This document shows positions 8,053 through 25,428 of a DNA stretch of 44,754 nucleotides, in pieces. Below the pieces are notes generated by a model. That model saw only the letters and a list, made by a program, of their open reading frames with translations. It searched no databases and had not been told where the DNA came from. Positions within the stretch are counted from its first letter, which is position 1; the number at the start of each line of letters is the position of its first letter. Made by a program: the position numbers and the translations under genes. Origin of the DNA: an uncultured Bacteroidales bacterium. GTDB lineage: Bacteria > Bacteroidota > Bacteroidia > Bacteroidales > Paludibacteraceae. Location: NCBI GenBank assembly GCA_937892015.1, contig CALAUY010000049.1, forward strand, positions 1 through 44,754. The letters are read 5' to 3'.

Positions 8053-8925
8053 TTACTCAACAATGATGGGCTTGTACTTTGGAACAAGTGCCTTCATGAT
8101 ACACCAACCAATCAGGTAGGCAACGGCACAGATGCAGAACACGACCATGTAGGCGGCTGGCTTTCCCTCGAAACCGAAGAAGGTGAAAGCAGAGCCCTGA
8201 CCAGCAGCCCAGTCGAAGAATTTACCGCTACCGAGGTTGATACTCATAGAGCCCAGTCCACCAGCCATCGTTCCTAAACCGACGATGGTACCAATGGTAG
8301 ACTTGGGGAACATGTCACCGATGGTGGAGAACAGGTTTGCCGACCAAGCCTGATGACCTGCGCCGAGCAGACCGATCAGGATAGCGGGCCACCATGCGCT
8401 GTAGGCTCCCAGAGGCTGTGCGAAAAGTCCAAGCACGGGGAAACAAGCGAAGATGAACATGGCACGCATACGACCCAGATAGGGGTTCATGCCTTTCTTG
8501 TCTACGAAATAGGTGGGCAGATAACCACCACCGATGGAGAGGATGGTCACAATGGCATAGAGGGTGAAGATCAACGCGATACCCATGGTGGAGTCTGAGG
8601 TGTAGCCATACTGGTCTGAGAAGTAGGCTGGAGCCCAGAACAGGAAGAACCACCATACACCATCCGTCATGAACTTACCAACGAGGAACGACCATGTCTG
8701 TTTGTAGGTGAAGCACTGCAAGAACGGGATGGTCTTCTCTTCCTTCACATTCTCACGATCCTGAGCCTCTGCGATATCATTGTCTTGCTCGATATAGTTC
8801 AGCTCTGCCTGATTGACACGCTTGTTCTGTGCGGGCTTCTCATAGAGCCACATCCACAGTCCCATCCAAATGAAACCGAGGGCACCGATGATGATGAATG
8901 CCATCTCCCAACCCCCGGCACGTGC
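8053..8925 (-). pseudogene. MFS transporter (hexuronate/ExuT-like), 5'-truncated; only about the C-terminal 6-TM half remains
   Basis: Family-like sequence starts near ...GGWEMAFIIIGALGFIWMGLWMWLYEKPAQ, the central-loop region of ExuT-type MFS proteins, and runs to the stop at 8053. The ~60 codons upstream in the ORF (to 9111) are antisense read-through of the susD fragment. Confidence 0.7.
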
Positions 8926-8931
8926 CAACAG

Positions 8932-10026
8932 ATTATTTCGATGGTGGACGACGTGCTCAACGACCCCGAATGGGAGGAGCCTCTCTACCACTACGATGGC
9001 GGCAAGTCCGAACAGAACTGCCCGTGGGGACCGTATGCACCAATCATCAACTCGTGGGAGAGCCGTGCCAACCGACTCGCATCGTCTATCCCCACCACCT
9101 TCTTCGCACACGCCATCATGAGTTGCTATGATATAAAGAACTCAGACCGTAAGTCGGCACTGGACCCCCGCGGCGACATGCTGATGACACCACGCTCGAT
9201 GGGTACTACCGCCAACTCCGATGTGCTGCGTTACCTTGAGAGCAACATCGGTATGGACAACTCGATGAAAGTGACGTATTATCCCGACCTCTATGCCACG
9301 GATGCTATGTCGAATCCTTACACGCAAAACAATGGTTATATCGCGCTGATTACCACCGAAGAACTGATGTTCATCAAGGCCGAGGCTCAATACTGGGCAG
9401 GCGACAAAGCAGCAGCCTACAACACCACCGTTGAGGCGACAAAGAAGAACATGGAGCGTTATGGTATCTACGAGTCGGCACTGGCCACTGCCGCCAAGAG
9501 ACGCTACGACCGTTTCTTCGAGGTGAAGTTGCCGGGCGCAGTTGATTTCACCATCGGCGATCTGATGCAACAGAAATACGTGGCGATGTACCTGCAACCC
9601 GAGCAGTGGACAGACATGCGTCGCTACAACTATAGCTCCAAAACCAACGGCATCCAGTACGACAACTGCTTCGTCTATACAGTGTACACCGTCCACAACG
9701 GCTCTTCTAAGAAATGGGATGCTTCCAGCTTCTCCGGCGAATACTCGCTACGCCGTCCGTACAACCTCTACGAACCCTATTGGTGCACTTCGGACGACTA
9801 TGGCATCAATGCTGAGTTGTCGCCCAATGCGTGGATCAACCGCCTTAATGCCGACACCGAGACTGAGACCAAGTATAACAAGGGCGAACTGGACCGCATC
9901 GGCTATTACACGACCAATGCGGCAGGGGAGAAAGTGTTGGACTACCGCGTACTCAAGCGCCGACTAATCTGGGCACACAACACGAGCGGAAAGGCCGTTT
10001 GCAACGACCCCACACCGTGGATGTAA
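8932..10026 (+). pseudogene. RagB/SusD family outer-membrane nutrient-binding protein, 5'-truncated (no signal peptide or lipobox, no upstream susC)
   Basis: SusD-like C-terminal blocks: ...DPRGDMLM..., YIALITTEELMFIKAEAQYWAGDKAAAYNTTVEATKKNMERYG and YVAMYLQPEQWTDMRRYNYS. About 365 aa remain of an expected 500-600. Confidence 0.75.
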
Positions 10027-10097: not shown

Positions 10098-10955
10098 ATG
10101 AAACTAAGAACAAAAATACTGATGCTTGCGGCGATGACCTTGACCGCAGCGTCTTGTGCGAAGCACGATTTCTTCGACGAAACGACCATCACCGGCAACG
10201 TTGGTCCCGAGGCGTACTGGGAGATAGGTAGTGCCGCCGTCAGTGCCGGTGGTGAGATGGAGTTCACCGTGCAGTACTACTCATCGGTGAGCGAGCTCGA
10301 CCACTCTGAAGTGTGGTACGACATCGAGGAGACGATTGACCAGACCGTCACCTGTCCGTGGACCAGCACCTTCAGCTATTCGCTGTCGAGCAACGTGAAA
10401 GCGCAGAAACGTGTGTCGCAGAAAATCAAGGAGTATCCCCATCTGGCGGAATATTGGAGCGACTCGCTTCATGCTTTCACCTTCACCGGCACGTTCCCCG
10501 TCAGCGGCACACTCGCCCGCTTCTCGTGGAGTCACCCCGAGGAGTTCGACTCCACGAAAATGGTCACGTATTTTGGCGAGGGCTATATGGAGACCTTCAA
10601 AGAAGCGGTGCATACCCGCATGCAGTACGCCGACTACCGTAAGATGTACATCGGTATGGGACTGATGGACGACTTCACACAATATACCGACTCCACCGAG
10701 GACAAGAACCAAGGCGAGGGTATCTATGTGTACCATTTCAAGCAGGATGCCGACGGCAACACCCTCCCGTGGGTGACCGACTCGATGGAACTGTATTGGA
10801 ACAAAGTGACGTTTGAGATGCTGGTGGAGAACTCTGCCAACGGCTATTACGACGTGGATTACAACCGCTCGTATTCGCTCAACGCCCTGATGAAAGTCTA
10901 TGATGTGCGCGGCGTCTATTCCGCTACGCAATCCAAAGAAATTGCAATCAACTAA
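10098..10955 (+). CDS. lipoprotein of unknown function in the SusE/F position (candidate surface glycan-binding protein)
   Basis: 285 aa with ATG start and lipoprotein signal MKLRTKILMLAAMTLTAAS-C. Lies immediately downstream of the susD fragment. I recognise no domain. Confidence 0.6.
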   Translation: MKLRTKILMLAAMTLTAASCAKHDFFDETTITGNVGPEAYWEIGSAAVSAGGEMEFTVQYYSSVSELDHSEVWYDIEETIDQTVTCPWTSTFSYSLSSNVKAQKRVSQKIKEYPHLAEYWSDSLHAFTFTGTFPVSGTLARFSWSHPEEFDSTKMVTYFGEGYMETFKEAVHTRMQYADYRKMYIGMGLMDDFTQYTDSTEDKNQGEGIYVYHFKQDADGNTLPWVTDSMELYWNKVTFEMLVENSANGYYDVDYNRSYSLNALMKVYDVRGVYSATQSKEIAIN

Positions 10956-10971: not shown

Positions 10972-12672
10972 ATGAAACGCAATATCTTCAATCATCTCAT
11001 GTTGGCATTACTGCCGCTCCTGGCGGTCAGTTGTTACGACAACGTCCCCAAAGTGGAGGAACTGCCGCAAGATGCCGTATCGTTTGAGTACAGCGTACTG
11101 GGAGACTACGCGCTCGACTACTACGTGGGTTCGGTCATCAAGTTTGTCAACACCTCGCCCGCAACCACAGAGGGTACACCCGCTTGGGATTTCGGTGACG
11201 GTGCATCCGCGACAGGTGACGAGGTGGAGCATTTCTTCGAGGAGGCCGGCACGTACACCGTCAAACTGACCATCGGCAATTACAGCAAGAGCCAGGTCAT
11301 CATGATATCTGACATCAAGCCACTGCTTACCATCAACCCCATTGAGGGCGGTATCTGCGAGGTGAACACCTCCAAAGTGTCCTTCTCGCTCGAAGTGCCT
11401 AACCCGCAAAACTACTCGCTGGAGTATCTCTGGACACTCCCCGCAGGCACGAAAAATGCTAATGGAGAAATTATCACCACCTGCACCGACCGCTTGCCCG
11501 GTGACCTCACGTTCACTAATGTCGGCTCACAGACAGTCAAACTGCAAGTGAAGATGAACGGGCGTACACTCGAAGAGGGCTCGGCGAATGTACAAGTGGG
11601 CTTCAACCAAGACGTCCCCACGCTCTATTACGCCGTGCAGGGCGGACATATCATGGCATACAAACTGGTGCCTGATGCCGACCGGCCTGCTGACATGGAA
11701 ATAGCGCCATACGACCTCGGACTCTCGTCAGGTCAGCATCCCTTCAACCTACTCTTCAAAGACTCGTCGCTCTTCGTGCTCGATTGTGGCAAACAGTTCT
11801 ACTATGTCAACGACGAGGACGGCGTGCTTGGCGATGGTAAGATTTCCGTCATTAGCAAGGACGGTAGCAAAGTGGAGACGATGATCTCCAACGCCGGACA
11901 GGCCGCTTTCGACGACCCGTTCTACGGATACATCGAGGACGATATCCTCTATTATGCCAACCGCAACACGGGCATCATCCCCGTGCCTATCAATACGCGC
12001 AACGCGCTTTATAGCAGCGCCGAATTTCCCTATCATGTGCAGCACAACTATCTGGGCTACTACAACAACGGTTGGGGATACGGCTCTATCGGCGGATGTC
12101 TGGGTAAGATTGACGGCGTTTGGCATTGGTGTAAGTTCTACAACGGCACCGGCATCTTCCGTTTCACCGACTCCGACATCCTCTCGTCCTCCATCGCGCA
12201 AGGCGATGCCAACAACGTGCCGGCTGCAGGTATAGCGCTCGGCGGTATGTGCCCCAAATCCTTCGCGTACGACAAGAAACTCGGAAAGTTCTATTTCACC
12301 CTCTGGGACGAGGGCTACGCGGGTTTCTACGCTTGCACAATGGACGAGCTGAACGCAATCGGAACGAGCAAATCAAACCTTGCACCCTACAAGATTCTGA
12401 GCGATACAGGACTGGGGTTCGAGGCGAATATCTCCGGTTCACCCGCTTCAGTGGAAGGCACTTCTTCCGAGCCCGTAGCTATCTGTCAGATGGCACTGGA
12501 TGAGAACACAGGTTGCGTCTATTTCGGGTATCGTAACACGAAGAACGACCCCACGAATGCGCCTACAGGCCTCTATCGCTACAACCCCGAAACGAACAAT
12601 ATACAGACTGTGCTGGAAGGTGCGCCCATCTATGGTGTGGTGGTCAACCCAACGAAAGCGAAACTATTCTGA
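10972..12672 (+). CDS. PKD-domain lipoprotein with a beta-propeller-like C-terminal region
   Basis: The ATG at 10972 gives MKRNIFNHLMLALLPLLAVS-C (lipobox); the track start at 10900 overlaps the previous gene. PKD block FVNTSPATTEGTPAWDFGDGASATGDEVEHFFEEAGTYTVKLTIGN. The stop overlaps the next start (ATGA at 12670-12674). Confidence 0.65.
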   Translation: MKRNIFNHLMLALLPLLAVSCYDNVPKVEELPQDAVSFEYSVLGDYALDYYVGSVIKFVNTSPATTEGTPAWDFGDGASATGDEVEHFFEEAGTYTVKLTIGNYSKSQVIMISDIKPLLTINPIEGGICEVNTSKVSFSLEVPNPQNYSLEYLWTLPAGTKNANGEIITTCTDRLPGDLTFTNVGSQTVKLQVKMNGRTLEEGSANVQVGFNQDVPTLYYAVQGGHIMAYKLVPDADRPADMEIAPYDLGLSSGQHPFNLLFKDSSLFVLDCGKQFYYVNDEDGVLGDGKISVISKDGSKVETMISNAGQAAFDDPFYGYIEDDILYYANRNTGIIPVPINTRNALYSSAEFPYHVQHNYLGYYNNGWGYGSIGGCLGKIDGVWHWCKFYNGTGIFRFTDSDILSSSIAQGDANNVPAAGIALGGMCPKSFAYDKKLGKFYFTLWDEGYAGFYACTMDELNAIGTSKSNLAPYKILSDTGLGFEANISGSPASVEGTSSEPVAICQMALDENTGCVYFGYRNTKNDPTNAPTGLYRYNPETNNIQTVLEGAPIYGVVVNPTKAKLF

Positions 12673-15167
12673 TGAAGCGAACGCTACATATAGCTCTTGC
12701 TCTGAGCCTCTGCTCCCTGCTTCTTGCCCCTTGTTCACTCAAGGCGCAACCCAAGCGCGAGTTCCGCGCTTCGTGGCTCACTACCGTTTGGGCAATCGAC
12801 TGGCCTACATCGTGGGGAAATGCGAACAAAGCGCAGCAACAGCAAGACGAACTCAAAGCACTCGTCGATTCGCTCGAAGCAGCGAACATGAACGCCGTCT
12901 TCTTCCAAGTACGCGGCTTCTGTGACGCAATGTACAACTCTCAATACGAGCCGTGGAGTACCTACCTGACGGGAACGCGTGGTGGACAACCCTCGTACGA
13001 TCCGCTGGCAGTGCTCGTGGAGTATGCCCACAGTAAGGGCATCGAGGTGCATGCGTGGATGAACCCCTACCGGTACAGCACATCCTCCGCAACTCACGGA
13101 ACACTCGCAACCGACTACGCCAACACCCATCCCGATTGGCTCGTCAACTGCGGCGGAATCTACATCCTCAACCCCTGCATGCCCGAAGTGAAAGAGCGGA
13201 TTGCAGCAGTGGTGGCCGATGTGGTAGAGCACTACGATGTGGACGGCATCATCTTCGATGACTATTTCTATCAGTCGGGTTACTTGAACACGTACGACGA
13301 CAGCTATTATCAGGCCAGTGGCACTACCCTCAGTCGCGCTGATTGGCGGCGAGCGCAAGTGAACGAGATGGTGAGGATGGTGCGCGATACGATTCGCTCC
13401 ATCAAACCGTACGTCCATTTCGGCATTGGCCCGGCGGGCGTTGCCGGCAAGTCGAACACCTCCGCGCCCGTCTATGGCGTCGAACCGTGTCCGGTCGGTT
13501 CCGACTGGCAGTACAACGGCATCTATTCTGACCCGCTGGCGTGGTACAACGAGCAGACCATCGACTACATGGCACCACAACTGTACTGGACCATCGGTTC
13601 AAGCAACGACTACGACGTGCTCTCCAATTGGTGGAGCAAGATGGCATCGGTCTTCGGGCGACATATGTACCCGTCACAGGACCTCAGCGGCGGTAAGGGC
13701 TCGAGCACTTCGATGGCCGAAGAGATTGGTAAACAGATGATTCTCGACCGCGACCACGACCTCTTGGGCGCACCCGGCAGTTGTTGGTACTCGCTCAACA
13801 CGGGCATGAAAACGGCGGGATTCTTCCGTTATATCCGCAACAACGTCAATCCCCACTTGGCAGTCGTGCCACAGATGTGGTGGCTCAAACAAGATACAAC
13901 CCTGTTCGTCAATAACTTACGTTATCAGAGTATGGGCAACGGCAAGATGTACCTCACATGGGATGCACCGATGGACAATCTGCGATATGTGGTATATAAC
14001 GTACCGCAAGACACAGTGGGCAAGATTGGCGCATTTGCCGGTGGCGATTTCATCCGTTCTATCACGTATGGCACTAACTATGCCATCGATATGACCGGCG
14101 ATGTGGGACGTTTTGGCGTGAGTGTACTCGACCGTTTTGGCAACGAGTACCCCGTCCGTACTTATGGCAACACTGCGATTGGCAACGCAACCCCGGCAAC
14201 CCTCACTTTCCCCGCTGATGGGACTTCACCGCTCTTGCCAACGTGGTTCGCGTGGAACAAAGTGGCCGGTGCCGATTCGTATTTTGTGCAGTTCTCTCGC
14301 ACGGCCGACTTCTCTTCGCTCGACTACGAGACAGAGACGGTCGATACCTGTTTCTTCACCGCCAACGTGCTTTGGCTGACTGAAGGTGCCACCTACTATT
14401 GGCGCGTCGTAACACGTTCGCCCAACTGCCGCGATGCATATTCCGAGACACGCTCTTTCGGATGCTCCTACTTCAAGATGGTCTATCCCGCCGACGAGGA
14501 ACGCGACTGCTCACAGACGCTCACTGCCGTTTGCGACAGTGTCCCTGACCCGTCTGCCGTCTATACGTTCGAGTTCTCAAGGACTGTTTCGTTCGGTGCC
14601 AGTGATATCCTCTACAACGTCTCTGCCGGCCAACCCAGAGCTTCCGTCCCGGAAAACATACTGCTCGCATCTTCTTATTACTACGTGCGCGCAACGGTAG
14701 AGTATTCGGGCGTATCGGCCACCACCGACGTACACCGTTTCCGCACCGCCGCGCAAGTGGTACCCGTACCGACAGTTATCAGCCCTGCTGAGGGCGATAC
14801 CATCATCGGTAGCGAGGTGGAGATTTGTTGGCAAGAACAGGCCTCTTCCGGTTTCCGTGTGGAACTCTCTACTTCCGTCACTTTCGCCGGACGACAAACC
14901 AAGGCGGCTGTCAAGGACCCGACAACGTTCTGCCACACCTTTTCGGATGTTGACCCCGGCACCTACCACGTCCGCGTCAAAGCGGTGGCCGACGGAGTCT
15001 ATACCAATCCAAGTCCCGTCGTCTCCTTCATTATCGAAGCACCAGAGTCCGCACTCACGAACTCCCAAGAAGAGACAACCGCCTGCAAAATACTCGAAAA
15101 CGGACAGGTCATCATCATCCGCGACGGCAAACGCTACACAGTTATGGGAACAATAATAGATAAATAA
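12672..15167 (+). CDS. secreted glycosyl hydrolase-like family 10 (GHL10, YngK-type) protein with three tandem beta-sandwich modules and a shared C-terminal tag
   Basis: 831 aa. Signal peptide ending LKA-QP. GHL10 N-terminal signature REFRASWLTTVWAIDWP...NMNAVFFQVRGFCDAMYNSQYEPWS...YDPL...AHSKGIEVHAWMNPY. Three ~90-aa repeats each end in YYWRV, YYVRA or YHVRV. Tail KILENGQVIIIRDGKRYTVMGTIIDK. Confidence 0.8.
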   Translation: MKRTLHIALALSLCSLLLAPCSLKAQPKREFRASWLTTVWAIDWPTSWGNANKAQQQQDELKALVDSLEAANMNAVFFQVRGFCDAMYNSQYEPWSTYLTGTRGGQPSYDPLAVLVEYAHSKGIEVHAWMNPYRYSTSSATHGTLATDYANTHPDWLVNCGGIYILNPCMPEVKERIAAVVADVVEHYDVDGIIFDDYFYQSGYLNTYDDSYYQASGTTLSRADWRRAQVNEMVRMVRDTIRSIKPYVHFGIGPAGVAGKSNTSAPVYGVEPCPVGSDWQYNGIYSDPLAWYNEQTIDYMAPQLYWTIGSSNDYDVLSNWWSKMASVFGRHMYPSQDLSGGKGSSTSMAEEIGKQMILDRDHDLLGAPGSCWYSLNTGMKTAGFFRYIRNNVNPHLAVVPQMWWLKQDTTLFVNNLRYQSMGNGKMYLTWDAPMDNLRYVVYNVPQDTVGKIGAFAGGDFIRSITYGTNYAIDMTGDVGRFGVSVLDRFGNEYPVRTYGNTAIGNATPATLTFPADGTSPLLPTWFAWNKVAGADSYFVQFSRTADFSSLDYETETVDTCFFTANVLWLTEGATYYWRVVTRSPNCRDAYSETRSFGCSYFKMVYPADEERDCSQTLTAVCDSVPDPSAVYTFEFSRTVSFGASDILYNVSAGQPRASVPENILLASSYYYVRATVEYSGVSATTDVHRFRTAAQVVPVPTVISPAEGDTIIGSEVEICWQEQASSGFRVELSTSVTFAGRQTKAAVKDPTTFCHTFSDVDPGTYHVRVKAVADGVYTNPSPVVSFIIEAPESALTNSQEETTACKILENGQVIIIRDGKRYTVMGTIIDK

Positions 15168-15209
15168 CTAGATAAATAACATGACAACGGCAACAAGAGA
15201 CAATATTCT

Positions 15210-15311
15210 ATGAGAGAAGCAATTAGAGATAAGGAACGTCTGCTGCATATACAATCAGCAATCATGCAGTTGGTTGGAACATGCTTACACCACCCTGTGA
15301 TTGTCCTGTGA
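15210..15311 (+). pseudogene. remnant of a DUF86/HepT-type toxin gene (N-terminal ~28 codons only)
   Basis: ATG at 15210 gives MREAIRDKERLLHIQSAIMQLVGTCLHH..., which resembles the conserved N-terminus of HepT/DUF86 proteins (M.e.irDkeRL.HI..ai..i). The frame then runs into the 11-bp tandem repeat and stops. The start overlaps a preceding mini-ORF stop as ATGA, as in MNT-HepT pairs. Confidence 0.35.
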
Positions 15312-15358
15312 TTGTCCTGTGATTGTCCTGTGATTGTCCTGTGATTGTCCTGTGATTA
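15295..15358. repeat. 11-bp tandem repeat CCTGTGATTGT, about 5.8 copies
   Basis: Read directly: five perfect copies at 15295-15349 plus the partial CCTGTGATT. Lies about 125 bp upstream of the ATG at 15482. Confidence 0.95.
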
Positions 15359-15481
15359 ATAGACATTCAAAAGACTACAAAACAACAAACAAAATAATTT
15401 ACTTAACGCAACCGAGTCATGAGGGACGTGTTCCCACAAGGGGAGGAAGCAAAATTTATTAACTAAAAACAAACACAATTT

Positions 15482-18400
15482 ATGAAAAGACTCTCTCTTT
15501 TCGCTGCTGTCCTTTTTGCAGCAGTAATGTCGTTCGCACAAGCGCCGGCAATCATGTTCTCCGAGGCTGCCTCGACCGGAGCATTGACTGACAGCACTTT
15601 CACGGCGACAAATTTAACTCTTCGGACTGTTGACACCGGTAACAAGATGTCTATCGATGCCAACAATGCCTCTTTCGGCGAGAGTGCAGACGCTCGTGTG
15701 CCATTCTCTTATCGCCTGAAAGCCGGAGCTAAAACGACCATGTCGGATTCAGAACCTACCACCAACTACTTGAAGCTCAATGCAGCTGTTGCCGGTCAGT
15801 TGGTGATTGCTGTTCGTCCTTCCAGCAGCGGTGCTGAGGACAGAAACCTCATCGTTGCACAGAATGGCGTTGAGCTCTACAATCAAGTTATTCTTGAGTC
15901 AGCCTTGAAGCATACCGAAGATGGAGTTACCTACTTCAACTTCGTTAAGGTAAATGTTGAGGCCGGTGAAATTATCCTCACCTATCCCGTTGGAGCCCTC
16001 AATTTCTACTACTTCGGCTTGATGACAAACTCTGCGGCCTTTGTAGAAAAACTTTGGTCAGGAGAACCTCTCGGTTGGACTGCCGCTGACTCCCGTCAAT
16101 GGACCGGTTTCGGCGAGTATGTCTATTGGGAGAGCAAAGCAGAGCATACTATCTATGGAACACATGATGGTGTGACTGTTGACACACTCTTTACCAATGA
16201 CGCTATTGATGGTACGGCTTTCTGTGTGGATGGTGCCGGTAACTTCGTAGTTGAGGGTGTTTTCCCCTCTGTTGCGTCTCACGTTTTCTTGGTTAAACAC
16301 GACCTCTCTGCATCGGTTGATATCCCCGTTACCGGTCTCGCTCGTACGGACATCGTAACTGCTACCGGTGATGTGTTCTCTGCTGAGGGCGGTTATGTAT
16401 TCCTTTATGGTAACTCGGCGAACCTGCTTATTTTAGCTATCAAGAATGCCGGTGCTGCTGACCAAGAGGTTGTAACCAAGACGGTTGCTGTTGCCGGTAG
16501 TAATGTGCAGAACTTTGTGGTTGCCGGAGATACGCTTGTTCAGTATGTGCAGCGTCGTTCGCAAGGACAAACAGGTTTTGATAAGTTAGAGAACGGCGTT
16601 AACACCGGCTCTATTGCCGGCATGCGCGGTTACAAGCACACCACTCTTGGTGGAGCAATGCTTACGTTGGCAGGCAACGAATTTGCAATCTATCCTGCAG
16701 GTGCAAACAACTATTCTTCTGAATTCTCTGTTGCCAACCTGACAGAAGGTTCTTTGGCTGCTAGTAAAGCAGATGCGTTGCAGACTCTCTTCTGCGCAAA
16801 CACAACCACCCGCGCGAACTCCACTAACGTTGGTGTATTCCTTAATGCTTCGAAGATTGACGACAACACCGCTTACATTCAAGTGGGCAATGGCTCTGAT
16901 GGTACTGCCCTGTTCAAACTCTCAGTTGAACCCGCTGTATTGTCGGCTTGCTATCTGAAGCAGGGCAATGAAGGCGCTACTTGGGAAGCTACCGGCACAG
17001 CCCAAGGCACACATTATGTACGTGAAGGCATCTTCATGGCCGACTCACTCTTCATCAACACTACTGCTTCTGACGAGGGGGCTGTCATGTTCACCCGCGA
17101 TAATATCGCCTTCACCGGCAACGTGGCTGTGAACGATACCGTTCGTTTCGTTTACAACGCCGCTTCCGGCGTTATGGGCGTTGAACTGCTCGGCAAGTTT
17201 ATCCCGAAACTGACCTTCAACGTAAAAGTTCCTGAAGGCACGCCGAACTGCTACATTGCCGGTAACTTCAATGACTGGACCTTTACACGTATGACGCAAC
17301 TCACCGACAGCACTTACACCATCACTATTACAGGTGACGGCGTGGCCATCGTTGATAGCGTACAGTACAAGTACACTTGTGGTACTGACTGGGCTTATGT
17401 TGAGAAAGATGCCAACAACGAAGAGATTGGCAATCGCCATTGGGCAGAGAACGACGTTGTTGCACGCTGGTTCGATGTTCCGTCAGTTAACGCTGTTACT
17501 TACGAACTCAATGGTGGCGTCTTCAACGACTACGGCTGGACAGGCAAGGGTGCTGTACTCCTTGATCTCCAGAACGACTTCAATGCCGCTTATAACACTT
17601 CTATGAATTGGGTTAAGGTAGAGGATGGCGTTTACTATTACCATATTGGCAACACTACGGACGAGACACCTCAACCAATATGGAAGACCGAAGCTGAGGC
17701 TGTTGGAGAGGCTTGCACCGTTACGGGCTTTGTCCAGAACACCACTTACAATACCGAGAACCGCCTGAAGAACCTCATCTCCGTTACCAATGTGGATAAG
17801 TATGGTTGGTTGAAGGACGTGATTGTTAAGACACGTACCGCTGCCGGGTTGGCTGCTACTGACGACGACCTCTCAGAGAACATCTATCGTAAAGAGATTT
17901 CCGCTATCTTCTTACAGTCGCCTGCTGAGACCTCTTGGCCGGCAGCTCCGAGCTATGCCATTGCCGGTACTATAGAGGCAATGATGCCGGTTTGGAAACA
18001 CGGTTTCTGCAACCCCGACCACGTCAATGCCGAGTTCACGCTCAATGCACCGTATTATAGCGGATACACGTTCGATGGCTGGTATGCTGAGTCCGACTTC
18101 TCCGGAAGCAAAGTAACGTCTATCAACGACAGTACACCGGCTTGCACCCTCTATGCAAAGTGGGTTGAGTACATCCCGACGGTTGCTGAAGCTATCGCCG
18201 AGGCACAGAACGACACCGTTAAACTCGGTGCGGTGGTTACCTTCATCCGTGGCGCGAAGAACGTTTACGTTCAGGATGCTACCGGCGGCGTTCTACTCTA
18301 TACCGCTGCCAATGCAACGTGCAAAGTGGGCGATTTCGTAGTTGTTCGCGGTAAGAACACCACATACGGCGGCGCTCCTGAGATTGGTGGCGCAACCTTC

Positions 18401-19975
18401 CTCTCCAGCGAAGAAGGTCATGCTCTGCCCGCCGAGCTCACCACTACGCTCTCTGCACTCACTGCTGAACCGCTCAAGTACTTCGCGCAGCGCGTTTACG
18501 TTGAGGGACTTGTCCTGGCTTCTTACGATAACAATGGCAATGCCTTTGTTACCGATGGCGTGGACACTGTTCAGTGCTACTATGTAACGCCTGACCAGAC
18601 TGCTATCCCCGTTGGCTCGAAAGTGAATATCCACCTGATTGCCGCTTACTACAACAAGTTCCAATTCGTTGGTCCAAGCGATGGCATCGAACTGGCTCCT
18701 ACTGCCGGTGGCGACCCGTATCAGTATCCTGCTCTTGGCGAAAACGGCGTTTACACGCTCACCAACAAGTGGCTCTACAGCAATGTGATGGACAACTTCT
18801 CTGCTAATAAACCGGCAGCCGACGACTACGCTCGTGGCATGGTGGCCAAGGACGGTAAGATGTACTTCATCAACCGCACTATCGGTGGCTTCACGGTTGT
18901 TGACGGCGCTACGGGCGAGATGCTTGACCCGATTACTATCACCGGTGACCACCTCTTCCAGCAACAAGATACCGCCGGCGAATGGTCAGCTTGCGCTACG
19001 CTCGCATACAACGACGTGAAACTTGACAACGCCGGCCACTTCCTCATCGCAGGTTGTGTCACCGGTGGCAACCGCTTCCAAGTTTATACGGTTGACATCG
19101 CTACAGGTGTTGCTACCGAACTCATCAATGAGCGTCTCTACGACAACGAGGAATGGGGTGCTGAACTTGCTGAGGCTGCTACCAAGTGGCGTTTCGACGC
19201 ATTCAACGTTTACGGCGACGTAACAAGCAATGCTATCGTCATGGCTGCCGATGCCAACTCCTTCTACGCTTACAAGTGGACCATCGAGAACGGCGTTGCC
19301 GGTGCTGCCGAGCGTATCAACTGTACGCCGGAAACAACCGACGAATCGCTCCTCGTAAAGGACGGTGCACTCTCTGTTACCGCTTTCGGTACGGCTCCGC
19401 AGATCTTCCCCGTTGACTTCAACTACTTCTACGTTGACGGATTCAACCATCTGCCAATGCTGTTCGACATGGACGGTACGCTCATGGAAGACTTCGCTAC
19501 ATGCCCCACCGGCGTGGCTGTTCCGATGGCCGGCGACACCTGCACGATGAACTTCGGTCACAACGGACTCTGCGAGTTCCAGATTGGTGACGAGTACTTC
19601 CTCGTAATGGCCGCCACCAACACCGTTGGCTCACCGACATCTGCATTCGCTATCTATAAGTTCGCTGACGAGGCGAAATCGTTCGCCGATATGGAACCGC
19701 TCTACTTCTTCCCGAAAGCCGGTATGGGTTCTGCTACCAATGGTTGCCGTACCGCCGTTCCGTCTGTCGAAGTTAGTGGTACCAAGGCCACCATCTACAT
19801 CTACACCAACAACAATGGTTATGGTGTTTATGAGATGACCGGCAAAGAAGGCACCGGCATCAAGAACATCGATGGCGACAATGTAGAGGTAATGAAAGTG
19901 ATTGAGAACGGTCATGTTTACATCATCAAGAATGGTGTACGCTACACGGTTCTCGGCGCTCAAGTTAGCAAGTAA
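15482..19975 (+). CDS. 1497-aa secreted mosaic surface protein (CBM-like module, Listeria-Bacteroides repeat, OB-like module, propeller-like C-terminal region, shared C-terminal tag)
   Basis: Signal peptide MKRLSLFAAVLFAAVMSFA-QA. CBM20/48-like block YIAGNFNDWTFTRMTQL...YKYTCGTDWAYVE (~nt 17205-17480). Flg_new-type repeat YSGYTFDGWYAES (~18040-18170). OB-like block VKLGAVVTFIRGAKNVYVQDATGGVLLY...GDFVVVRGKNTTYGGAPEI (~18180-18400). Tail KVIENGHVYIIKNGVRYTVLGAQVSK. Confidence 0.6.
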   Translation: MKRLSLFAAVLFAAVMSFAQAPAIMFSEAASTGALTDSTFTATNLTLRTVDTGNKMSIDANNASFGESADARVPFSYRLKAGAKTTMSDSEPTTNYLKLNAAVAGQLVIAVRPSSSGAEDRNLIVAQNGVELYNQVILESALKHTEDGVTYFNFVKVNVEAGEIILTYPVGALNFYYFGLMTNSAAFVEKLWSGEPLGWTAADSRQWTGFGEYVYWESKAEHTIYGTHDGVTVDTLFTNDAIDGTAFCVDGAGNFVVEGVFPSVASHVFLVKHDLSASVDIPVTGLARTDIVTATGDVFSAEGGYVFLYGNSANLLILAIKNAGAADQEVVTKTVAVAGSNVQNFVVAGDTLVQYVQRRSQGQTGFDKLENGVNTGSIAGMRGYKHTTLGGAMLTLAGNEFAIYPAGANNYSSEFSVANLTEGSLAASKADALQTLFCANTTTRANSTNVGVFLNASKIDDNTAYIQVGNGSDGTALFKLSVEPAVLSACYLKQGNEGATWEATGTAQGTHYVREGIFMADSLFINTTASDEGAVMFTRDNIAFTGNVAVNDTVRFVYNAASGVMGVELLGKFIPKLTFNVKVPEGTPNCYIAGNFNDWTFTRMTQLTDSTYTITITGDGVAIVDSVQYKYTCGTDWAYVEKDANNEEIGNRHWAENDVVARWFDVPSVNAVTYELNGGVFNDYGWTGKGAVLLDLQNDFNAAYNTSMNWVKVEDGVYYYHIGNTTDETPQPIWKTEAEAVGEACTVTGFVQNTTYNTENRLKNLISVTNVDKYGWLKDVIVKTRTAAGLAATDDDLSENIYRKEISAIFLQSPAETSWPAAPSYAIAGTIEAMMPVWKHGFCNPDHVNAEFTLNAPYYSGYTFDGWYAESDFSGSKVTSINDSTPACTLYAKWVEYIPTVAEAIAEAQNDTVKLGAVVTFIRGAKNVYVQDATGGVLLYTAANATCKVGDFVVVRGKNTTYGGAPEIGGATFLSSEEGHALPAELTTTLSALTAEPLKYFAQRVYVEGLVLASYDNNGNAFVTDGVDTVQCYYVTPDQTAIPVGSKVNIHLIAAYYNKFQFVGPSDGIELAPTAGGDPYQYPALGENGVYTLTNKWLYSNVMDNFSANKPAADDYARGMVAKDGKMYFINRTIGGFTVVDGATGEMLDPITITGDHLFQQQDTAGEWSACATLAYNDVKLDNAGHFLIAGCVTGGNRFQVYTVDIATGVATELINERLYDNEEWGAELAEAATKWRFDAFNVYGDVTSNAIVMAADANSFYAYKWTIENGVAGAAERINCTPETTDESLLVKDGALSVTAFGTAPQIFPVDFNYFYVDGFNHLPMLFDMDGTLMEDFATCPTGVAVPMAGDTCTMNFGHNGLCEFQIGDEYFLVMAATNTVGSPTSAFAIYKFADEAKSFADMEPLYFFPKAGMGSATNGCRTAVPSVEVSGTKATIYIYTNNNGYGVYEMTGKEGTGIKNIDGDNVEVMKVIENGHVYIIKNGVRYTVLGAQVSK

Positions 19976-20011
19976 ATACTGCCCATGCTGTTTAAACAGT
20001 AACCTGATAAT

Positions 20012-20039
20012 GAGGGCGGCGCAATACCGCGCCGCCCTC
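20012..20039 (+). terminator. GC-rich hairpin terminator after the 1497-aa gene
   Basis: GAGGGCGGCGC-aatacc-GCGCCGCCCTC, an 11-bp perfect stem, followed by a weak T-rich tract (TGTCTTAATCTTTT). Confidence 0.65.
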
Positions 20040-20058
20040 TGTCTTAATCTTTTCTCCG

Positions 20059-22359
20059 ATGAAAAAACGCATACTCCTACTCTCGATTCTTATCTGTACA
20101 ACGGCGTTGAGCCAAGCTATCACACTCAACAACGTTGAGTACACCATCGACACGCTTGCCCGTTTCTCGCCGGGCCCGGGTGCCATGTACTACCAACTAC
20201 AGATGCTGCGAGCAACTGACCGCGGTGGACGACTCAATTGTTGGCTCATGACTGTCGATACCAAGAACCCGTACGTCTCTATCGAAGCTGTAATGGGGCG
20301 CGATGCCGTCATCGGAACAGAACGACCGTCGGCCATGGCGGTCAGAAAAAGCACCTCCACGAAAATATTCTATGGAGGCACCAACGGCGATTTCTTCGCC
20401 ACCACCGGTGATGTGGGACGCCCGACCGGCCTCAGCATCGTCAACAACGAATTTGTCTATACACCCACCTCTTCCGCCCGTCGGTTTGGCGGCGTAGATG
20501 AAGCGATGCGTGCTGTGGTGGGCACAACAATGAAATATACCGGCAAACTGCTGTTGCCGGATACAACCCTTACCATCAAACATGTCAACTATACGCGAGC
20601 CGCTGACGAGCTCGTACTCTATAACCAACACAACGGCACTACTACGCAAACCAATGCGTACGGCACCGAACTACTCATCGAACTGCTGCCGGGATATGCT
20701 TGGCATACCACCGCAACCCTCAAAGCGCGCGTCGTCACTAAGCAAGTCGGTGTAGGCTCAATGGCCATCCCTGCCGGCAAGGCCGTCCTCTCCGGACACG
20801 GCACCATGCAGACGATGCTCAACACCCTCAACGAGGGCGATACTGTTACCGTCAAGTTCACGCTCAAGATTGACGGCACGAACACCAACGTGTCGCAGTG
20901 TATAGGCGGCGACAACTATGCACTGATTGTGGATAGTGGCAGGGTAGAACAGTCTAATTTCTGGAACGAACTGCATCCCCGCACCGCTTTCGGCAGCAAC
21001 GAAACGGGTGACACCCTACTCTTCCTCGTTGTGGATGGGCGCGGCGTCAGTACCGGCTGCACAACGAAAGTGCTGGGCGAGATTATGCACTACTACGGCG
21101 CATGGAAAGCCGTCAACTGGGACGGTGGCGGCTCATCGTGCCTCTATATCCGGCCTTTCGGCGAAGTAAACCACGGCTCTGACGGCACCGAGCGTGCGGT
21201 CGGTAATGCGATGTTCGCCGTGGCGAACATACCGGAAGACGACAACGTGATTGCCTCCATCGCACCCTATCAACCCGACTACGCCCTGCCACGTTACGGC
21301 ATGGCAGCACCCGACTTCGTCGGATACAACCGTTTCGGCGTACTCATCGACACGCACGTCGAGGGCGTCACCCTCTCTTGTGACGAGACGCTTGGCCACA
21401 TACTCAACGATGGCCGCTTCTTCGCCGACGGCACACAAAACGGGCTCTTACATGCAGTACTCAACGACTCCGTCGCATGCGACATACCCGTCCGACTCAA
21501 TACCTCCTCGCCCATCACTATCCGTCTCGACTCGCTCCTCATCGACTCCCGACACCCCTATTCCATTGAGGTGAGCGGCATCGTGGGTAACGCCTCCATA
21601 GAGGTGTACCCGGGCGCTCTCACGTGGCACTCGCTCAACGACCAAGTGGCCACCGTAAGCGATGAGGGCATCATCCTCGGTGTGAGCAACGGCAGTACAC
21701 AAGTCATCGGACGGCTCGGAGATTACACCGACACCATCCTCGTCAACGTAGAGATACCTTCCCATGTGCCAATGCAGTGGGAGGACTTCCTCGCATTCGA
21801 CGAATGGAAAATAACGTCCACCACGGGTTTCAACCCCACGTGGGTCGTCAGCAACTGCCTCGGTTGCCCGTCAGGACTTGCGTTCACGTACGTCATTGGC
21901 CGTTCACCGTTCCTGAAAATAGAGAACAAAGAGCGTATGTACTCGCTGCCGGACTCTATTCGTTGGGCGTTTCAAACCGATGCGCAACTGACCAAAGTGA
22001 ATATGGGCATCCGCACCGACAAGGCCGAACAAGCCACTACCATCACGCTCTTCCCGGAAGGCGTACCCTCTAACACGCAGAACCAAGTGTGCATCCCCGT
22101 TCGCGAGACGTTCGGTGACGACCCTGCCATCTTCCCGCTCTGGTTGGAGTACATCAATTTCCTTGTGGACACCAAAACCACCACCGGCACCCACAACATC
22201 ACGCTTTGGCCGATTGAACTCATCTACAACGAATACGTCGAGTCGGCACTTCCCTGCACTTCAGCTGAACCTACTGCCCGCAAAATACTCGATAACGGTC
22301 AACTCCTCATCATCCACAACAACACCCGCTATACCCTCCTCGGCACAGCAATACATTAA
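20059..22359 (+). CDS. secreted phosphodiester glycosidase family protein (NAGPA/DUF2233 domain) with a Big_2 domain and the shared C-terminal tag
   Basis: Signal peptide MKKRILLLSILICTTALS-QA. NAGPA-type blocks GGTNGDFF and RTAFGSNETGDTLLFLVVDGRGVSTG...AVNWDGGGSS. Big_2-like block LTWHSLNDQVATVSDEGIILGVSNGSTQVIG. Tail KILDNGQLLIIHNNTRYTLLGTAIH. Confidence 0.8.
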   Translation: MKKRILLLSILICTTALSQAITLNNVEYTIDTLARFSPGPGAMYYQLQMLRATDRGGRLNCWLMTVDTKNPYVSIEAVMGRDAVIGTERPSAMAVRKSTSTKIFYGGTNGDFFATTGDVGRPTGLSIVNNEFVYTPTSSARRFGGVDEAMRAVVGTTMKYTGKLLLPDTTLTIKHVNYTRAADELVLYNQHNGTTTQTNAYGTELLIELLPGYAWHTTATLKARVVTKQVGVGSMAIPAGKAVLSGHGTMQTMLNTLNEGDTVTVKFTLKIDGTNTNVSQCIGGDNYALIVDSGRVEQSNFWNELHPRTAFGSNETGDTLLFLVVDGRGVSTGCTTKVLGEIMHYYGAWKAVNWDGGGSSCLYIRPFGEVNHGSDGTERAVGNAMFAVANIPEDDNVIASIAPYQPDYALPRYGMAAPDFVGYNRFGVLIDTHVEGVTLSCDETLGHILNDGRFFADGTQNGLLHAVLNDSVACDIPVRLNTSSPITIRLDSLLIDSRHPYSIEVSGIVGNASIEVYPGALTWHSLNDQVATVSDEGIILGVSNGSTQVIGRLGDYTDTILVNVEIPSHVPMQWEDFLAFDEWKITSTTGFNPTWVVSNCLGCPSGLAFTYVIGRSPFLKIENKERMYSLPDSIRWAFQTDAQLTKVNMGIRTDKAEQATTITLFPEGVPSNTQNQVCIPVRETFGDDPAIFPLWLEYINFLVDTKTTTGTHNITLWPIELIYNEYVESALPCTSAEPTARKILDNGQLLIIHNNTRYTLLGTAIH

Positions 22360-22401
22360 CATCGCCATCTCGAAATAACGAAATAACGAACCCTAATAAT
22401 A

Positions 22402-25400
22402 ATGAAAAAATCTCTTTTCCTTACCGCCCTGCTCGCGGTTGCGTTTGCCCTCAACGCTCAGAGCATTCGCGTCCTCAGTACCCAAACGATAGGTTACGGC
22501 AATATGCCGCATATCTCTGCCGATGGTCTCCGCGTGAGTTGTCTGCCTTCCGGTGAAGCTTGGTCGGAGGTTATCGCCGACATCTACGTCACCAACGAGA
22601 ACTGCCAACTGATTCTCCATCAGAACGGTCTCTGCCGGCAACTCACGCCCGACGGTGCCGATGCGCACTACATCTGGTCGTCGGTGTCCCCTGACGGTAC
22701 GAAGATTCTGTACAACACGCAGCACGGCACCTCTGTCTGCAACCTACAAGGGCAGAAAGTGGCGTATCTCGGACATATCAACGCGCCTGTCTGGTACGGC
22801 AACGATTATGTGGTAGGGCACCTCGACCTCGCAGAGGATATCGAGACCATCTCCTCCGTCATCCTCATGGCAAAAGCTGACGGCACCGCAGTGCAACAAC
22901 TCACCACCAACAGCGAGATTGCGATGTACCCGTCTGCTTCTCCGGCCACTGGACGTATCGTCTATAACAACCTCGCCGGCGATGTGCGCATGTTGCAACT
23001 CAACCTCGCAGAGAACGTCATCCCACAACAACTGCCTCAAGTGGTGACGGCCGAACGCAAAGCGCTGAAAGCACCCATTCAGAAAGCACGTAAGAACACG
23101 TTTGCCGACATCAAGATATACATCAACCCGGGGCACGGCGGTCACGGCTCTAACGACCGAGGCCTGACCATCTATCCTTTTGCTTCCGGTGACCCCGAAG
23201 GGTTCTGGGAAAGCAATTCCAACCTCGACAAGGGACTCATGCTCGACTCGATGCTTACGTCACTCGGCGTGCAGACGATGATGTCGCGCCGCACCAACAA
23301 CGATGGTGGCGGCAATGATGTCGATGTGCTCCAAGCTTGGCTCAACGCGGGTAAGATAACGCAAGAGCAGCACGACTACATGCTCGCCAACGGCGATGAT
23401 CGCGCGCTCTCTGCCATCGCTGCCGAGGCCAACGCATACGATGCCGACTTCATGATCTCTATCCACTCCAACGCCGGCACTCCCGCCAACTACATCTTGC
23501 AGCTCTATTCCGGAAAAGAGCTCTCTGATACGCGCTATTACGCCCACACCAACCGCAACGAGGCCGAGTCACGCGCCGTAGTGAACGTTTTCGCGCCATA
23601 CCTCTACGAGAACGCCAACTCTGATTGGACTCGTCAACCCATGATCGAGGGCGACAAGACGTTCGCTTACCGCATCTTCGGGTGGAGCAACGGTTACGGC
23701 GTTCTGCGCAACCTACAGGTGGGCGGCACCATCTCCGAGGGTTCGATGCACGACTATACCCCCGAAACCTACCGACTCATGAATATGGGCTACAAACGTG
23801 CCGAGGCGTTCCATTTCATGCAGTCGTTCCTCGAATACTACCTCGAATACACGTATCCTAAGGGCGCTATCGGCGGGCAAGTGCGCGATGCCTATCAAGG
23901 CATGACCTTCCCCGCCATCTATTTCCACCCGGGCTCAACCGACGGACTCATGCCGCTCAACCGTGCCAAAGTGGAACTGCTGCAGAACGATGTTGTTATT
24001 GCCACCACCTACACCGACACCCTCTACAACGGCTGTTACTATTTCTGGGATGTCGATACCGGCACTTACACCGTTCGCGCCTCAATGGACAATTACTACG
24101 CCAAGGAGAGCCAAGTGCACGTGACAGCCGGACATATCACGTATTGGAAAGCATTGCTCAACCTGCAACGCCAAACGCCTCCCGAAGTGATTGCTTACAC
24201 GCCGCATCCGGCCACTATCACCGACTCGGTAGAGGTCTCCACCGGCATAGAACTGACGTTCAACTGGGATATGAACGTCGATTCCACGATGGCCGCGTTC
24301 TCCATCTCTCCAGCTGTTGACGGCACTATCAGTTTCCACAACGCCAACCGCATCTTACGCTTCACGCCCTCCGGACGACTGACGCCAAACACCGAGTTCA
24401 CCGTCACACTCTCCACCCAAGCTTGTCATCCCGACACCGCTTGGCCAAACCATCTGGTGCAACCGTTCGTGTTCACTTTCCGCACAAAAGGACGCGGCTC
24501 GATCGTCTTCCTTGATTCTTACCCGCAAGATGGCGCCACCGACGTGCCGCTCAACCCGTCATTCATCACCCTCTTCGACCAAAAACTCAACACCTCCACC
24601 GTCCGTAAGGCGTTCTCCGTTGCCGACATGAACGGCACGACCGTGGGCATCAACACCCGTTCCATCAGTTGCAACGCCGCGCCAGAACCCTATGGGTACG
24701 CCGCGTTCGAACTGACCGGTGAACTGCGACCGAACACGCAGTATCAGATGACCATTGCCGGTTCGCTCAAAGATAATATCGGCATCACGCTCGATGTGCC
24801 CGTCACCGTCACCTTCACCACCGGTTCGGATGAGACGCCCGACCTGCCTGTGGTGGATGTGCTCGACACCCTTCAGTTCGTCTATGACCGCGACCTTTCC
24901 TTCGCTGTCATCAGCGGTTCTACACTCCGCAACACCAACAAGAAATACTGGGGCGTTGCATCCAACGAACTCCGCTACAATTTCTTCGATGGCGATGGTT
25001 GCGAGGCAGTCTATACGATGAAAAACAAGACATTGGTAGAGGCATGTAGTGATGACCGAGTCGGACTCTACGTTTTCGGCGATTTCTCGCAGAACGAGCT
25101 GTATGCGAAATTCGAGACCGATGGCGACATTCACTATATCAAAGTGTGCGACCTCGACTACGGTGGCTGGAAATGGCAAGAGTTAGACCTCTCGACACTG
25201 CCCCTCGGAGTCAAACTGCAACTGACGGCTCTGCGTATCAACCGCGGCAGTAGTATTCTCTCCGCCTCAGGAGCCATCTACCTCAACAACCTCTCTTTCC
25301 TCGCCGCACCATCGGCCATCAACCACATCTCCGACGACACCTCTTTCCGCAAGGAAGTGATTGACGGACAAATCTATATCTACAAGAACGGCAAACGTTA

Positions 25401-25428
25401 CTCCGTCCTCGGCCAAATGCTAAAATAA
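22402..25428 (+). CDS. secreted multidomain N-acetylmuramoyl-L-alanine amidase (PD40/TolB-like propeller + Amidase_3 + CarboxypepD_reg-like + 2 SbsA-type Ig domains + shared C-terminal tag)
   Basis: Signal peptide MKKSLFLTALLAVAFALNA-QS. PD40-like block SVSPDGTKILYN. Amidase_3 blocks IYINPGHGGHGSNDRG and ADFMISIHSNAG. Ig-like blocks PPEVIAYTPHPATITDSVEVSTGIELTF and LDSYPQDGATDVPLNPSFITLF. Tail KEVIDGQIYIYKNGKRYSVLGQMLK. Confidence 0.8.
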   Translation: MKKSLFLTALLAVAFALNAQSIRVLSTQTIGYGNMPHISADGLRVSCLPSGEAWSEVIADIYVTNENCQLILHQNGLCRQLTPDGADAHYIWSSVSPDGTKILYNTQHGTSVCNLQGQKVAYLGHINAPVWYGNDYVVGHLDLAEDIETISSVILMAKADGTAVQQLTTNSEIAMYPSASPATGRIVYNNLAGDVRMLQLNLAENVIPQQLPQVVTAERKALKAPIQKARKNTFADIKIYINPGHGGHGSNDRGLTIYPFASGDPEGFWESNSNLDKGLMLDSMLTSLGVQTMMSRRTNNDGGGNDVDVLQAWLNAGKITQEQHDYMLANGDDRALSAIAAEANAYDADFMISIHSNAGTPANYILQLYSGKELSDTRYYAHTNRNEAESRAVVNVFAPYLYENANSDWTRQPMIEGDKTFAYRIFGWSNGYGVLRNLQVGGTISEGSMHDYTPETYRLMNMGYKRAEAFHFMQSFLEYYLEYTYPKGAIGGQVRDAYQGMTFPAIYFHPGSTDGLMPLNRAKVELLQNDVVIATTYTDTLYNGCYYFWDVDTGTYTVRASMDNYYAKESQVHVTAGHITYWKALLNLQRQTPPEVIAYTPHPATITDSVEVSTGIELTFNWDMNVDSTMAAFSISPAVDGTISFHNANRILRFTPSGRLTPNTEFTVTLSTQACHPDTAWPNHLVQPFVFTFRTKGRGSIVFLDSYPQDGATDVPLNPSFITLFDQKLNTSTVRKAFSVADMNGTTVGINTRSISCNAAPEPYGYAAFELTGELRPNTQYQMTIAGSLKDNIGITLDVPVTVTFTTGSDETPDLPVVDVLDTLQFVYDRDLSFAVISGSTLRNTNKKYWGVASNELRYNFFDGDGCEAVYTMKNKTLVEACSDDRVGLYVFGDFSQNELYAKFETDGDIHYIKVCDLDYGGWKWQELDLSTLPLGVKLQLTALRINRGSSILSASGAIYLNNLSFLAAPSAINHISDDTSFRKEVIDGQIYIYKNGKRYSVLGQMLK

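Follow-up and report, generated by a model that had tools for sequence, protein, structure and literature searches.

The stretch of DNA analyzed here, referred to as the window, is the 44,754-nucleotide contig CALAUY010000049.1 of an uncultured Bacteroidales bacterium from the Paludibacteraceae, and it represents ordinary chromosome near dnaA with a composition free of anomalies or a foreign-DNA signature. The region of interest contains six conserved open reading frames (ORFs) downstream of a junction that cuts a SusD-like gene, all of them intact in the window with their catalytic motifs kept. These encode two lipoproteins, a GHL10 enzyme, an exported protein of 1497 amino acids, a protein of the NAGPA/DUF2233 family, and an exported amidase of 1008 amino acids (Table 1). 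Three of the ORFs, at 12672-15167 (GHL10), 20059-22359 (NAGPA), and 22402-25428 (amidase), had been picked out by an initial annotation of the sequence as a set of co-oriented, co-tagged secreted enzymes; all three are present at these positions on the + strand with signal peptides and a common C-terminal tag of ~25 amino acids, and the 1497-amino acid protein is tagged as well. The conserved functional unit exceeds this enzyme trio, with six genes in the window and ten in relatives. Judged from sequence and predicted structure, the region is probably the secreted-enzyme half of a polysaccharide utilization locus (PUL) that is conserved in the Paludibacteraceae and directed at the peptidoglycan of other, mainly dead or lysing, bacteria.

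The 1008-amino acid protein was originally described as an Amidase_3 domain placed between a TolB-like propeller and immunoglobulin (Ig)-like modules. The Amidase_3 domain and two Ig-like Big_5 domains (7e-23) are recovered with Pfam together with a CarboxypepD_reg domain, whereas the propeller-like N terminus gives weak PD40/TolB matches (E 0.007 and 7e-4). The Amidase_3 profile match is partial, covering positions 1-83 of 174 with 32.4 bits (cutoff 27) and E=1e-7, because the domain, which spans residues ~235-480, contains insertions and not because it is broken. In an alignment of 18 amidase homologues H245, E270, H355, and E446 are invariant, and a profile of this alignment pairs the His/Glu/His residues with the GH, E, and SxH positions of M. 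tuberculosis Rv3717, so that the zinc-binding and catalytic His and Glu residues of an Amidase_3 enzyme are present. Of 84 orthologues, 75-84 contain the catalytic motifs. Residues 218-512 were modeled with AlphaFold at a predicted local distance difference test score (pLDDT) of 74, and when this model is compared with the PDB using Foldseek the top 32 matches are all N-acetylmuramic acid (MurNAc)-L-Ala amidases (E~2e-9), including Ami1, Rv3717, AmiC2, AmiB, CwlD, CwlV, and AmiP with target-normalized TM scores of 0.6-0.8 and a maximum of 0.81. The Amidase_3 fold of the protein is complete as far as the model describes it. A separate gene at 4926-6158 gives a full-length Amidase_3 match (3e-45), which agrees with the initial view of the 1008-amino acid protein as an accessory exported paralogue; the SPOR domain ascribed to this division amidase is a weak match under the Pfam cutoff (E=0.023).

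The GHL10/YngK-type hydrolase is clearly defined in Pfam by PF02638 (E=5e-63; 213.5 bits, cutoff 27.9), matched from position 1 to 284 of a 311-position profile. Residues ~26-374 match the catalytic domain of C. difficile Cwp19 (PDB code 5oq2) at 7e-74, and the comparison with E. coli DigH gives 36% identity over 335 amino acids (2e-64), placing the identity to the two characterized enzymes at 36-45%. The putative active site of Cwp19, taken here as Asp195/Asp196/Tyr197, Trp127, Arg132, Gln295, Tyr297, and an aromatic-Ser cis-peptide, aligns with FDDYFY, WMNPYR, PQLYW, and a W-Y-S equivalent in the window GHL10, with the Cwp19 Ser250 position occupied by Gly. The FDDY, NPYR, and PQLYW motifs are kept in 52-62 of 66 GHL10 orthologues. 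Cwp19 is a lytic transglycosylase that degrades peptidoglycan (PMC6016235), for which a catalytic domain structure and a proposed active site are available (PMC5765458), and DigH specifically hydrolyzes denuded glycan strands, which are the products of amidases (PMC12288456). The earlier statement that GHL10 enzymes have no firmly assigned substrate is outdated, given that both of these act on the peptidoglycan glycan backbone, and residues ~26-374 of the window protein form a TIM-barrel domain predicted to cleave the same backbone.

Relatives of the amidase were collected by scanning a single genome for each species, giving at least 565 stretches that are nearly all from metagenome-assembled genomes of Paludibacteraceae or unclassified Bacteroidales from rumen and gut. 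Among 79 species-level loci taken from these stretches for synteny, most have the order lipoprotein, PKD lipoprotein, GHL10, 1497-amino acid protein homologue, NAGPA, amidase, down to 35-40% identity. The 59 loci whose sequence reaches 9.5 kb or more in front of the amidase gene show there, on the same strand, NAGPA (56/59), GHL10 (55/59), and the 1497-amino acid protein homologue (55/59), a co-occurrence of the gene set far beyond chance, and the trio proposed initially is kept in related genomes. Downstream of the amidase gene the relatives have only housekeeping genes (SecA, Lgt, Fmt, and NAD kinase), indicating that it marks the locus boundary.

The upstream context is provided by eight independent contigs located through their SusD. 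SusC (TIGR04056, 5e-181) followed by SusD lies directly before the two lipoproteins and GHL10 in all eight, and in six a MurK-type kinase and MurQ are placed in front of SusC to form one co-oriented array. MurQ in the relatives scores 309-321 bits with TIGR00274 (equivalog cutoff 302), and the kinase is assigned from its similarity (~1e-94) to PDB chains 8oqw and 8ow9 ("Putative novel MurNAc kinase"). The presence of adjacent SusC/SusD in 8/8 relatives and their absence from the window indicate that the locus family is a PUL and the window copy a PUL remnant, in keeping with the PUL-derived origin first suggested. MurNAc is found in peptidoglycan only. The linkage to MurK/MurQ in relatives, combined with the Amidase_3 fold and its invariant residues and with the Cwp19/DigH-type enzyme, therefore argues that the locus family acts on peptidoglycan, as the initial annotation had proposed. 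Further genes are seen in some of these contexts, with a NagB-like/PIG-L fusion, GT2, and DUF4922 at 2.3-4.7 kb on the - strand of L082, L085, L088, and L090, divergent from MurK/MurQ/SusC, and a Metallophos plus PQQ-propeller protein instead at 4471-6426 of L089. The latter resembles the ShfP-type extracellular phosphoesterases, which are predicted to act on (lipo)teichoic acid, extracellular DNA, or phospholipid head groups (bioRxiv 10.1101/2024.03.27.587046).

The phosphodiester glycosidase domain assigned to the 766-amino acid protein is likewise borne out, with a PF09992 match (E=7e-22; 78.8 bits, cutoff 25) that spans positions 14-166 of the 169 in the profile and is accompanied by Ig-like domains. 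In the PDB, matches are found to 3ohg (7e-8) and 6ozd (2e-4) and, marginally, to vertebrate NAGPA (0.01). The sequence NWDGGGSS in the window protein matches the catalytic DGGGS motif of human NAGPA, in which it is invariant and essential (Asp286; PMC13474241); the sole known substrate of NAGPA is a eukaryotic N-acetylglucosamine (GlcNAc)-1-P-6-Man glycan. DGGGS is found in 86 of 96 orthologous NAGPA ORFs. A second NAGPA paralogue lies between NAGPA and the amidase in ~10 loci (L011, L012, L022, L029, L037, L044, L063, L068, L072, and L074), and a second full-length amidase paralogue occurs in two (L029 4498-7500 and L044 4476-7481), which suggests that the enzymes are the part that is expanding within the locus. 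By analogy with the family chemistry, and given the motif conservation, the paralogue expansion, and the gene context, NAGPA may act on phosphodiester-linked wall glycopolymers; this is an inference and the least supported step of the scheme described below.

The four large proteins (GHL10, the 1497-amino acid protein, NAGPA, and the amidase) all combine Sec-type signal peptides with the ~25-amino acid tag, which has the motif K-x-[ILV]-[ED]-[ND]-G-[QH]-x-x-I-x-x-[ND]-[GN]-x-R-Y-[ST]-[VL]-[LM]-G and the consensus PQKVLRDGQLYILRNGKTYNALGAEVK. A hidden Markov model (HMM) of the tag is confident on three of the four window proteins, with the GHL10 tag seen by eye and detected by the HMM in 38 GHL10 orthologues. 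The Por_Secre_tail domain (PF18962/TIGR04183) of the type IX secretion system (T9SS) does not occur in the window proteins according to Pfam and NCBIfam, while orthologues of all four carry PF18962 or a C terminus resembling the T9SS C-terminal domain in many genomes. Scored per locus with crude home-made HMMs, 58 loci give a signal for the tag only, 22 for the C-terminal domain only, and 4 for both. Because the orthologues have the canonical T9SS domain at the position taken by the tag, the window proteins are predicted to leave the cell via the T9SS or an equivalent route, and the tag is possibly a sorting signal of a minimal or new kind. It is also found on five unrelated ORFs in the flanks of loci L002, L003, L007, L014, and L062.

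Only residues ~660-1497 of the 1497-amino acid protein are conserved in the coverage profile across loci, and this core is composed of an InlB-B/List_Bact repeat, an OB-like module, and a β-propeller followed by the tag. Profile searches of the protein give Flg_new (7e-8) and a weak DUF5689 match, and there is no PDB match by sequence. An AF2 model of the core (pLDDT 80) has its best fold match with PDB code 4ftd, a DUF4623 protein of Bacteroides eggerthii (1.4e-12), with other matches being generic propellers and none among the structure-search results having an enzyme-like fold. Residues 1-660 (window 15482-17461) are lineage-variable, have no Pfam match, and are missing from the versions of ~805-860 amino acids in many relatives; one stretch within them resembles by eye a starch/glycogen-type carbohydrate-binding module. 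The 285-amino acid lipoprotein has no Pfam or NCBIfam match and follows directly after SusD in 8/8 related contexts with 52-81% identity. The second lipoprotein, with the likely true start at M25 of the 10900 ORF, matches PKD and PKD_4 (E=2e-11), its PDB sequence matches are to PKD domains only, and it is syntenic in 41/59 loci within the available flank. From their position in the locus alone, the propeller protein and the two lipoproteins are probably substrate-binding or scaffolding components.

The 315-nucleotide gap between the GHL10 and 1497-amino acid protein genes contains a perfect 11-bp tandem repeat, CCTGTGATTGT x 5.8, at 15294-15357, which could be a regulatory or phase-variable element. 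An Rfam search of the window finds no RNA family, scans of the window for σ70 promoters and terminators perform no better than on shuffled sequence, and a Bacteroidetes-type promoter pattern has no match within the locus.

Table 1. Coordinates of the locus, its C-terminal tags, and neighboring genes in the window
Feature	Coordinates	Strand	Description
Housekeeping amidase	4926-6158	-	Full-length Amidase_3 match
5'-truncated major facilitator superfamily (MFS) transporter gene	8053..8920	-	MFS_1 profile; abuts SusD remnant; outside the conserved locus
SusD-like remnant	8911..10026	+	C-terminal ~370 residues; homologues 63-88% identical
285-aa lipoprotein	10098..10955	+	Lipobox ...TAASC; position as a PUL surface glycan-binding protein
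~566-aa PKD lipoprotein	10972..12672	+	Lipobox ...LAVSC; one PKD domain
GHL10 enzyme, 831 aa	12672..15167	+	PF02638; TIM barrel, then Fn3-like modules, tag
Tag of GHL10	15090..15164	+	KILENGQVIIIRDGKRYTVMGTIIDK region
Exported protein, 1497 aa	15482..19975	+	Variable N terminus, conserved core with β-propeller, tag
Tag of 1497-aa protein	19898..19972	+	Tag HMM
NAGPA/DUF2233 protein, 766 aa	20059..22359	+	PF09992; Ig-like modules, tag
Tag of NAGPA	22282..22356	+	Tag HMM
Exported amidase, 1008 aa	22402..25428	+	Amidase_3, CarboxypepD_reg-like, two Big_5, β-rich C-terminal domain, tag
Tag of amidase	25351..25425	+	Aligned at the same place as the Por_Secre_tail T9SS C-terminal domain of homologues
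MltF-like SLT lytic transglycosylase	26618-27316	-	Housekeeping wall enzyme flanking the locus

In the proposed scheme, in which the order of enzyme action, the NAGPA substrate, and the nutritional purpose are inferred, the four tagged proteins would be exported by Sec and then, via the T9SS, either released or attached to the surface. Outside the cell the Amidase_3 enzyme would remove the stem peptides from MurNAc, leaving sacculi un-crosslinked with denuded strands, which the GHL10 enzyme would cut to oligosaccharides. NAGPA might cleave the GlcNAc-1-phosphate linkages that tie teichoic acids or other wall polymers to O6 of MurNAc and so clear the glycan, and the propeller protein and the two lipoproteins probably bind or present the substrate at the surface. 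In complete loci SusD and SusC would import the oligosaccharides, and unlinked periplasmic enzymes and transporters, followed by MurK and MurQ, would direct MurNAc to GlcNAc-6-P for catabolism.

The window copy departs from a complete locus at its left end. ORF 8785-10026 is, from nucleotide ~8911, 63-88% identical to residues ~227-599 of SusD-like proteins, full-length homologues of which have ~600 amino acids (PF12741/PF12771), and the SusD remnant of the initial annotation is thus real. The start of genuine SusD homology is located at nucleotide ~8908-8923 by tblastn and blastn, with the N-terminal ~225 residues missing. On the other side the MFS_1 match begins at profile position 143 of 347, the 5' part of the MFS gene being lost, and direct reading shows a clean junction at ~8908-8920 where mid-MFS on the - strand is fused to mid-SusD. 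SusC, MurK, and MurQ are not found anywhere in the 44.7-kb contig. The junction reflects either a genuine loss or rearrangement of DNA or a chimera made in assembly. The chances are about even that, through a recent deletion of the promoter-proximal genes or a mis-join at ~8911, the locus in the window has become a relic without function or its contig is a chimera, in which case the window reveals little of activity in this organism. The clean fusion itself points in this direction, as do the full-length SusD proteins of close relatives at 84-88% identity, the left flank, which is not syntenic with that of L084, the closest relative with upstream context, and the example of L087, another contig with a truncated SusD that is demonstrably scrambled. 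Against it, none of the six downstream ORFs is disrupted and the catalytic motifs are conserved, and the downstream synteny chrA-chrA-SLT-udk is as in the nearest relatives L001 and L002. The truncated MFS gene was considered as an ancestral gene of the locus brought next to SusD by a single deletion and was rejected because no homologue lies upstream in the eight relatives. The truncated SusD of L087 (P0156), a bovine gut metagenome contig, was similarly rejected as independent confirmation of a deletion, since its breakpoint differs from that of the window and the contig itself is scrambled; it contains in sequence a GHL10 C terminus, the big protein, a GHL10 fragment, and a SusD fragment from residue ~293, which demonstrates that an apparent SusD truncation in this locus family can result from misassembly.

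Several observations weigh against the harvest of peptidoglycan from other bacteria by this locus. With SusC, MurK, and MurQ absent and SusD cut, uptake through the window copy is unworkable as described, and two of the eight upstream contexts have no MurK/MurQ next to SusC. No periplasmic exo-muramidase or glucosaminidase of the NamZ/NagZ type is encoded in the locus. The amidase domain model is of moderate confidence, the tag, alone and in whole proteins, has no Pfam or NCBIfam match, and literature searches on bacterial NAGPA/DUF2233 proteins found no bacterial substrate. Cell lysis by Cwp19 is 13-66 times slower than by lysozyme (PMC5765458), and activity on starch is reported for one GHL10 member, DogH (PMC9967864). 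The last of these bears on the idea that the locus degrades another glycan, such as PNAG (poly-GlcNAc)- or chitin-like GlcNAc polymers or fungal, protozoal, or host phosphoglycans, with Amidase_3-like and GHL10 domains that have diverged. This would also accommodate the structural relationship of GHL10 to the PgaB C-terminal domain, seen in weak PgaB NCBIfam matches (3e-4), the eukaryotic glycan that is the only known NAGPA substrate, and the divergent amidase with its partial Pfam match. It is nevertheless very improbable, as MurQ and MurK are specific to MurNAc and linked to the locus, the complete Amidase_3 catalytic set is invariant, and GHL10 is far closer to Cwp19/DigH (E 1e-64 to 1e-74) than to PgaB.

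If peptidoglycan is the substrate, the remaining question is whose. That the enzymes remodel or recycle the peptidoglycan or surface layer of the producer itself, in division, autolysis, or vesicle release, has in its favor that both characterized GHL10 enzymes, DigH and Cwp19, act on the wall of their own producer and that the amidase has a weak N-terminal TolB-like signal. We give this hardly any credence, because housekeeping is covered by the separate amidase and the MltF-like SLT enzyme, the T9SS domains of the orthologues send cargo over the outer membrane and away from the periplasmic sacculus, and the SusC/SusD linkage implies import from outside. A use in antagonism, in which a T9SS-secreted bacteriolytic cocktail kills Gram-positive competitors and the uptake of fragments is secondary, is unlikely but deserves more weight. 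Every catalytic protein is exported and tagged, the enzymes are predicted to act on polymeric wall, and the six ORFs are intact in the window despite the lost importer, as if useful without SusCD. However, no immunity gene or toxin-like module is seen at the locus, and the SusC/SusD genes preceding the enzymes in 8/8 intact contexts, with MurK/MurQ in 6/8, are the signature of a catabolic PUL. Scavenging from dead or lysing cells is favored over antagonism because importer and catabolic genes are linked, and the two are not mutually exclusive, being compatible as a "lyse and eat" strategy.

Peptidoglycan is among the largest bacterial necromass pools in rumen and hindgut, and the literature searched gives no account of Bacteroidota harvesting polymeric peptidoglycan, as opposed to small muropeptides. 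If the proposed function is correct, the occurrence of the locus in at least several hundred species-representative genomes provides a concrete route for peptidoglycan recycling, with an extracellular pathway of amidase action followed by cleavage of denuded glycan that runs parallel to the septal one of E. coli. It would also suggest what bacterial NAGPA/DUF2233 proteins may act on physiologically and offer a set of lytic enzymes for Gram-positive walls together with a possible new secretion tag. A bolder version, which we put forward tentatively and regard as rather doubtful, is that this is the first SusC/SusD-type peptidoglycan system, that the NAGPA homologue is a "wall-uncovering enzyme" cleaving the LCP-type GlcNAc-1-phosphate to 6-MurNAc linkage or poly-GlcNAc-1-P polymers and thus stripping teichoic acids or secondary wall polymers, and that the ~25-amino acid, β-hairpin-like tag is a new minimal sorting signal replacing the T9SS C-terminal domain of ~75 amino acids. 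The wall-uncovering activity, if true, would be the first bacterial function for a DUF2233 domain. Full-text literature searches returned no match for a peptidoglycan-targeting PUL or a T9SS-secreted amidase, the term "SusC" mostly returning "susceptibility".

Comparison with known systems shows partial similarities to each. The closest solved homologue of the window GHL10 domain is Cwp19, with FDDY, NPYR, and PQLYW common to both; the C. difficile protein is an S-layer-anchored autolysin bearing CWB2 repeats, whereas the window enzyme has Fn3-like modules and the tag in a PUL setting. The two-enzyme chemistry predicted here is found in E. coli, where the Amidase_3 enzymes AmiA/B/C strip the peptides and DigH (YddW) cleaves the peptide-free strands, but these are periplasmic enzymes acting on the cell's own septum that are not co-encoded and have no link to import or catabolism. 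NAGPA, the mannose-6-phosphate uncovering enzyme, and the bacterial DUF2233 structure (PDB code 3ohg) share the catalytic-core family and DGGGS with the window NAGPA; sequence comparison with vertebrate NAGPA gives a marginal E of ~0.01, and in the window protein the domain is joined to Ig-like modules and the tag. The murQRP-amiE-nagZ-namZ operon of B. subtilis brings together genes for an amidase, glycan-degrading enzymes, and MurQ in wall catabolism, with the difference that it relies on Gram-positive exo-acting enzymes and phosphotransferase system uptake and has no GHL10, NAGPA, SusCD, or T9SS. The salvage cluster of T. forsythia and B. fragilis (ampG, namZ1, murT, murK, murQ) is also from Bacteroidota, serves exogenous peptidoglycan/MurNAc, and ends in the cytoplasm with the same steps (MurNAc kinase and MurQ) as the relatives of the window locus. 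As described, it uses periplasmic exo-muramidases (NamZ, GH171) and inner-membrane transporters with SusC, SusD, TonB, and the outer membrane unmentioned, while the present locus family has in addition SusC/SusD, two lipoproteins, and four tagged proteins and is without NamZ. Classical Bacteroidota PULs, such as the Flavobacterium johnsoniae chitin locus with ChiA, combine SusC/SusD, surface lipoproteins, and depolymerases with T9SS signals. The locus family differs from these in its predicted substrate, peptidoglycan, and in having Amidase_3, GHL10, and NAGPA, which are not classical carbohydrate-active glycoside hydrolases (CAZymes), and the window lineage differs from the T9SS-type PULs in having the ~25-amino acid tag in place of the T9SS C-terminal domain. 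None of the compared systems joins SusC/SusD with secreted Amidase_3, GHL10, and NAGPA enzymes, and the locus family is predicted to be a PUL with a new substrate and a new enzyme set.

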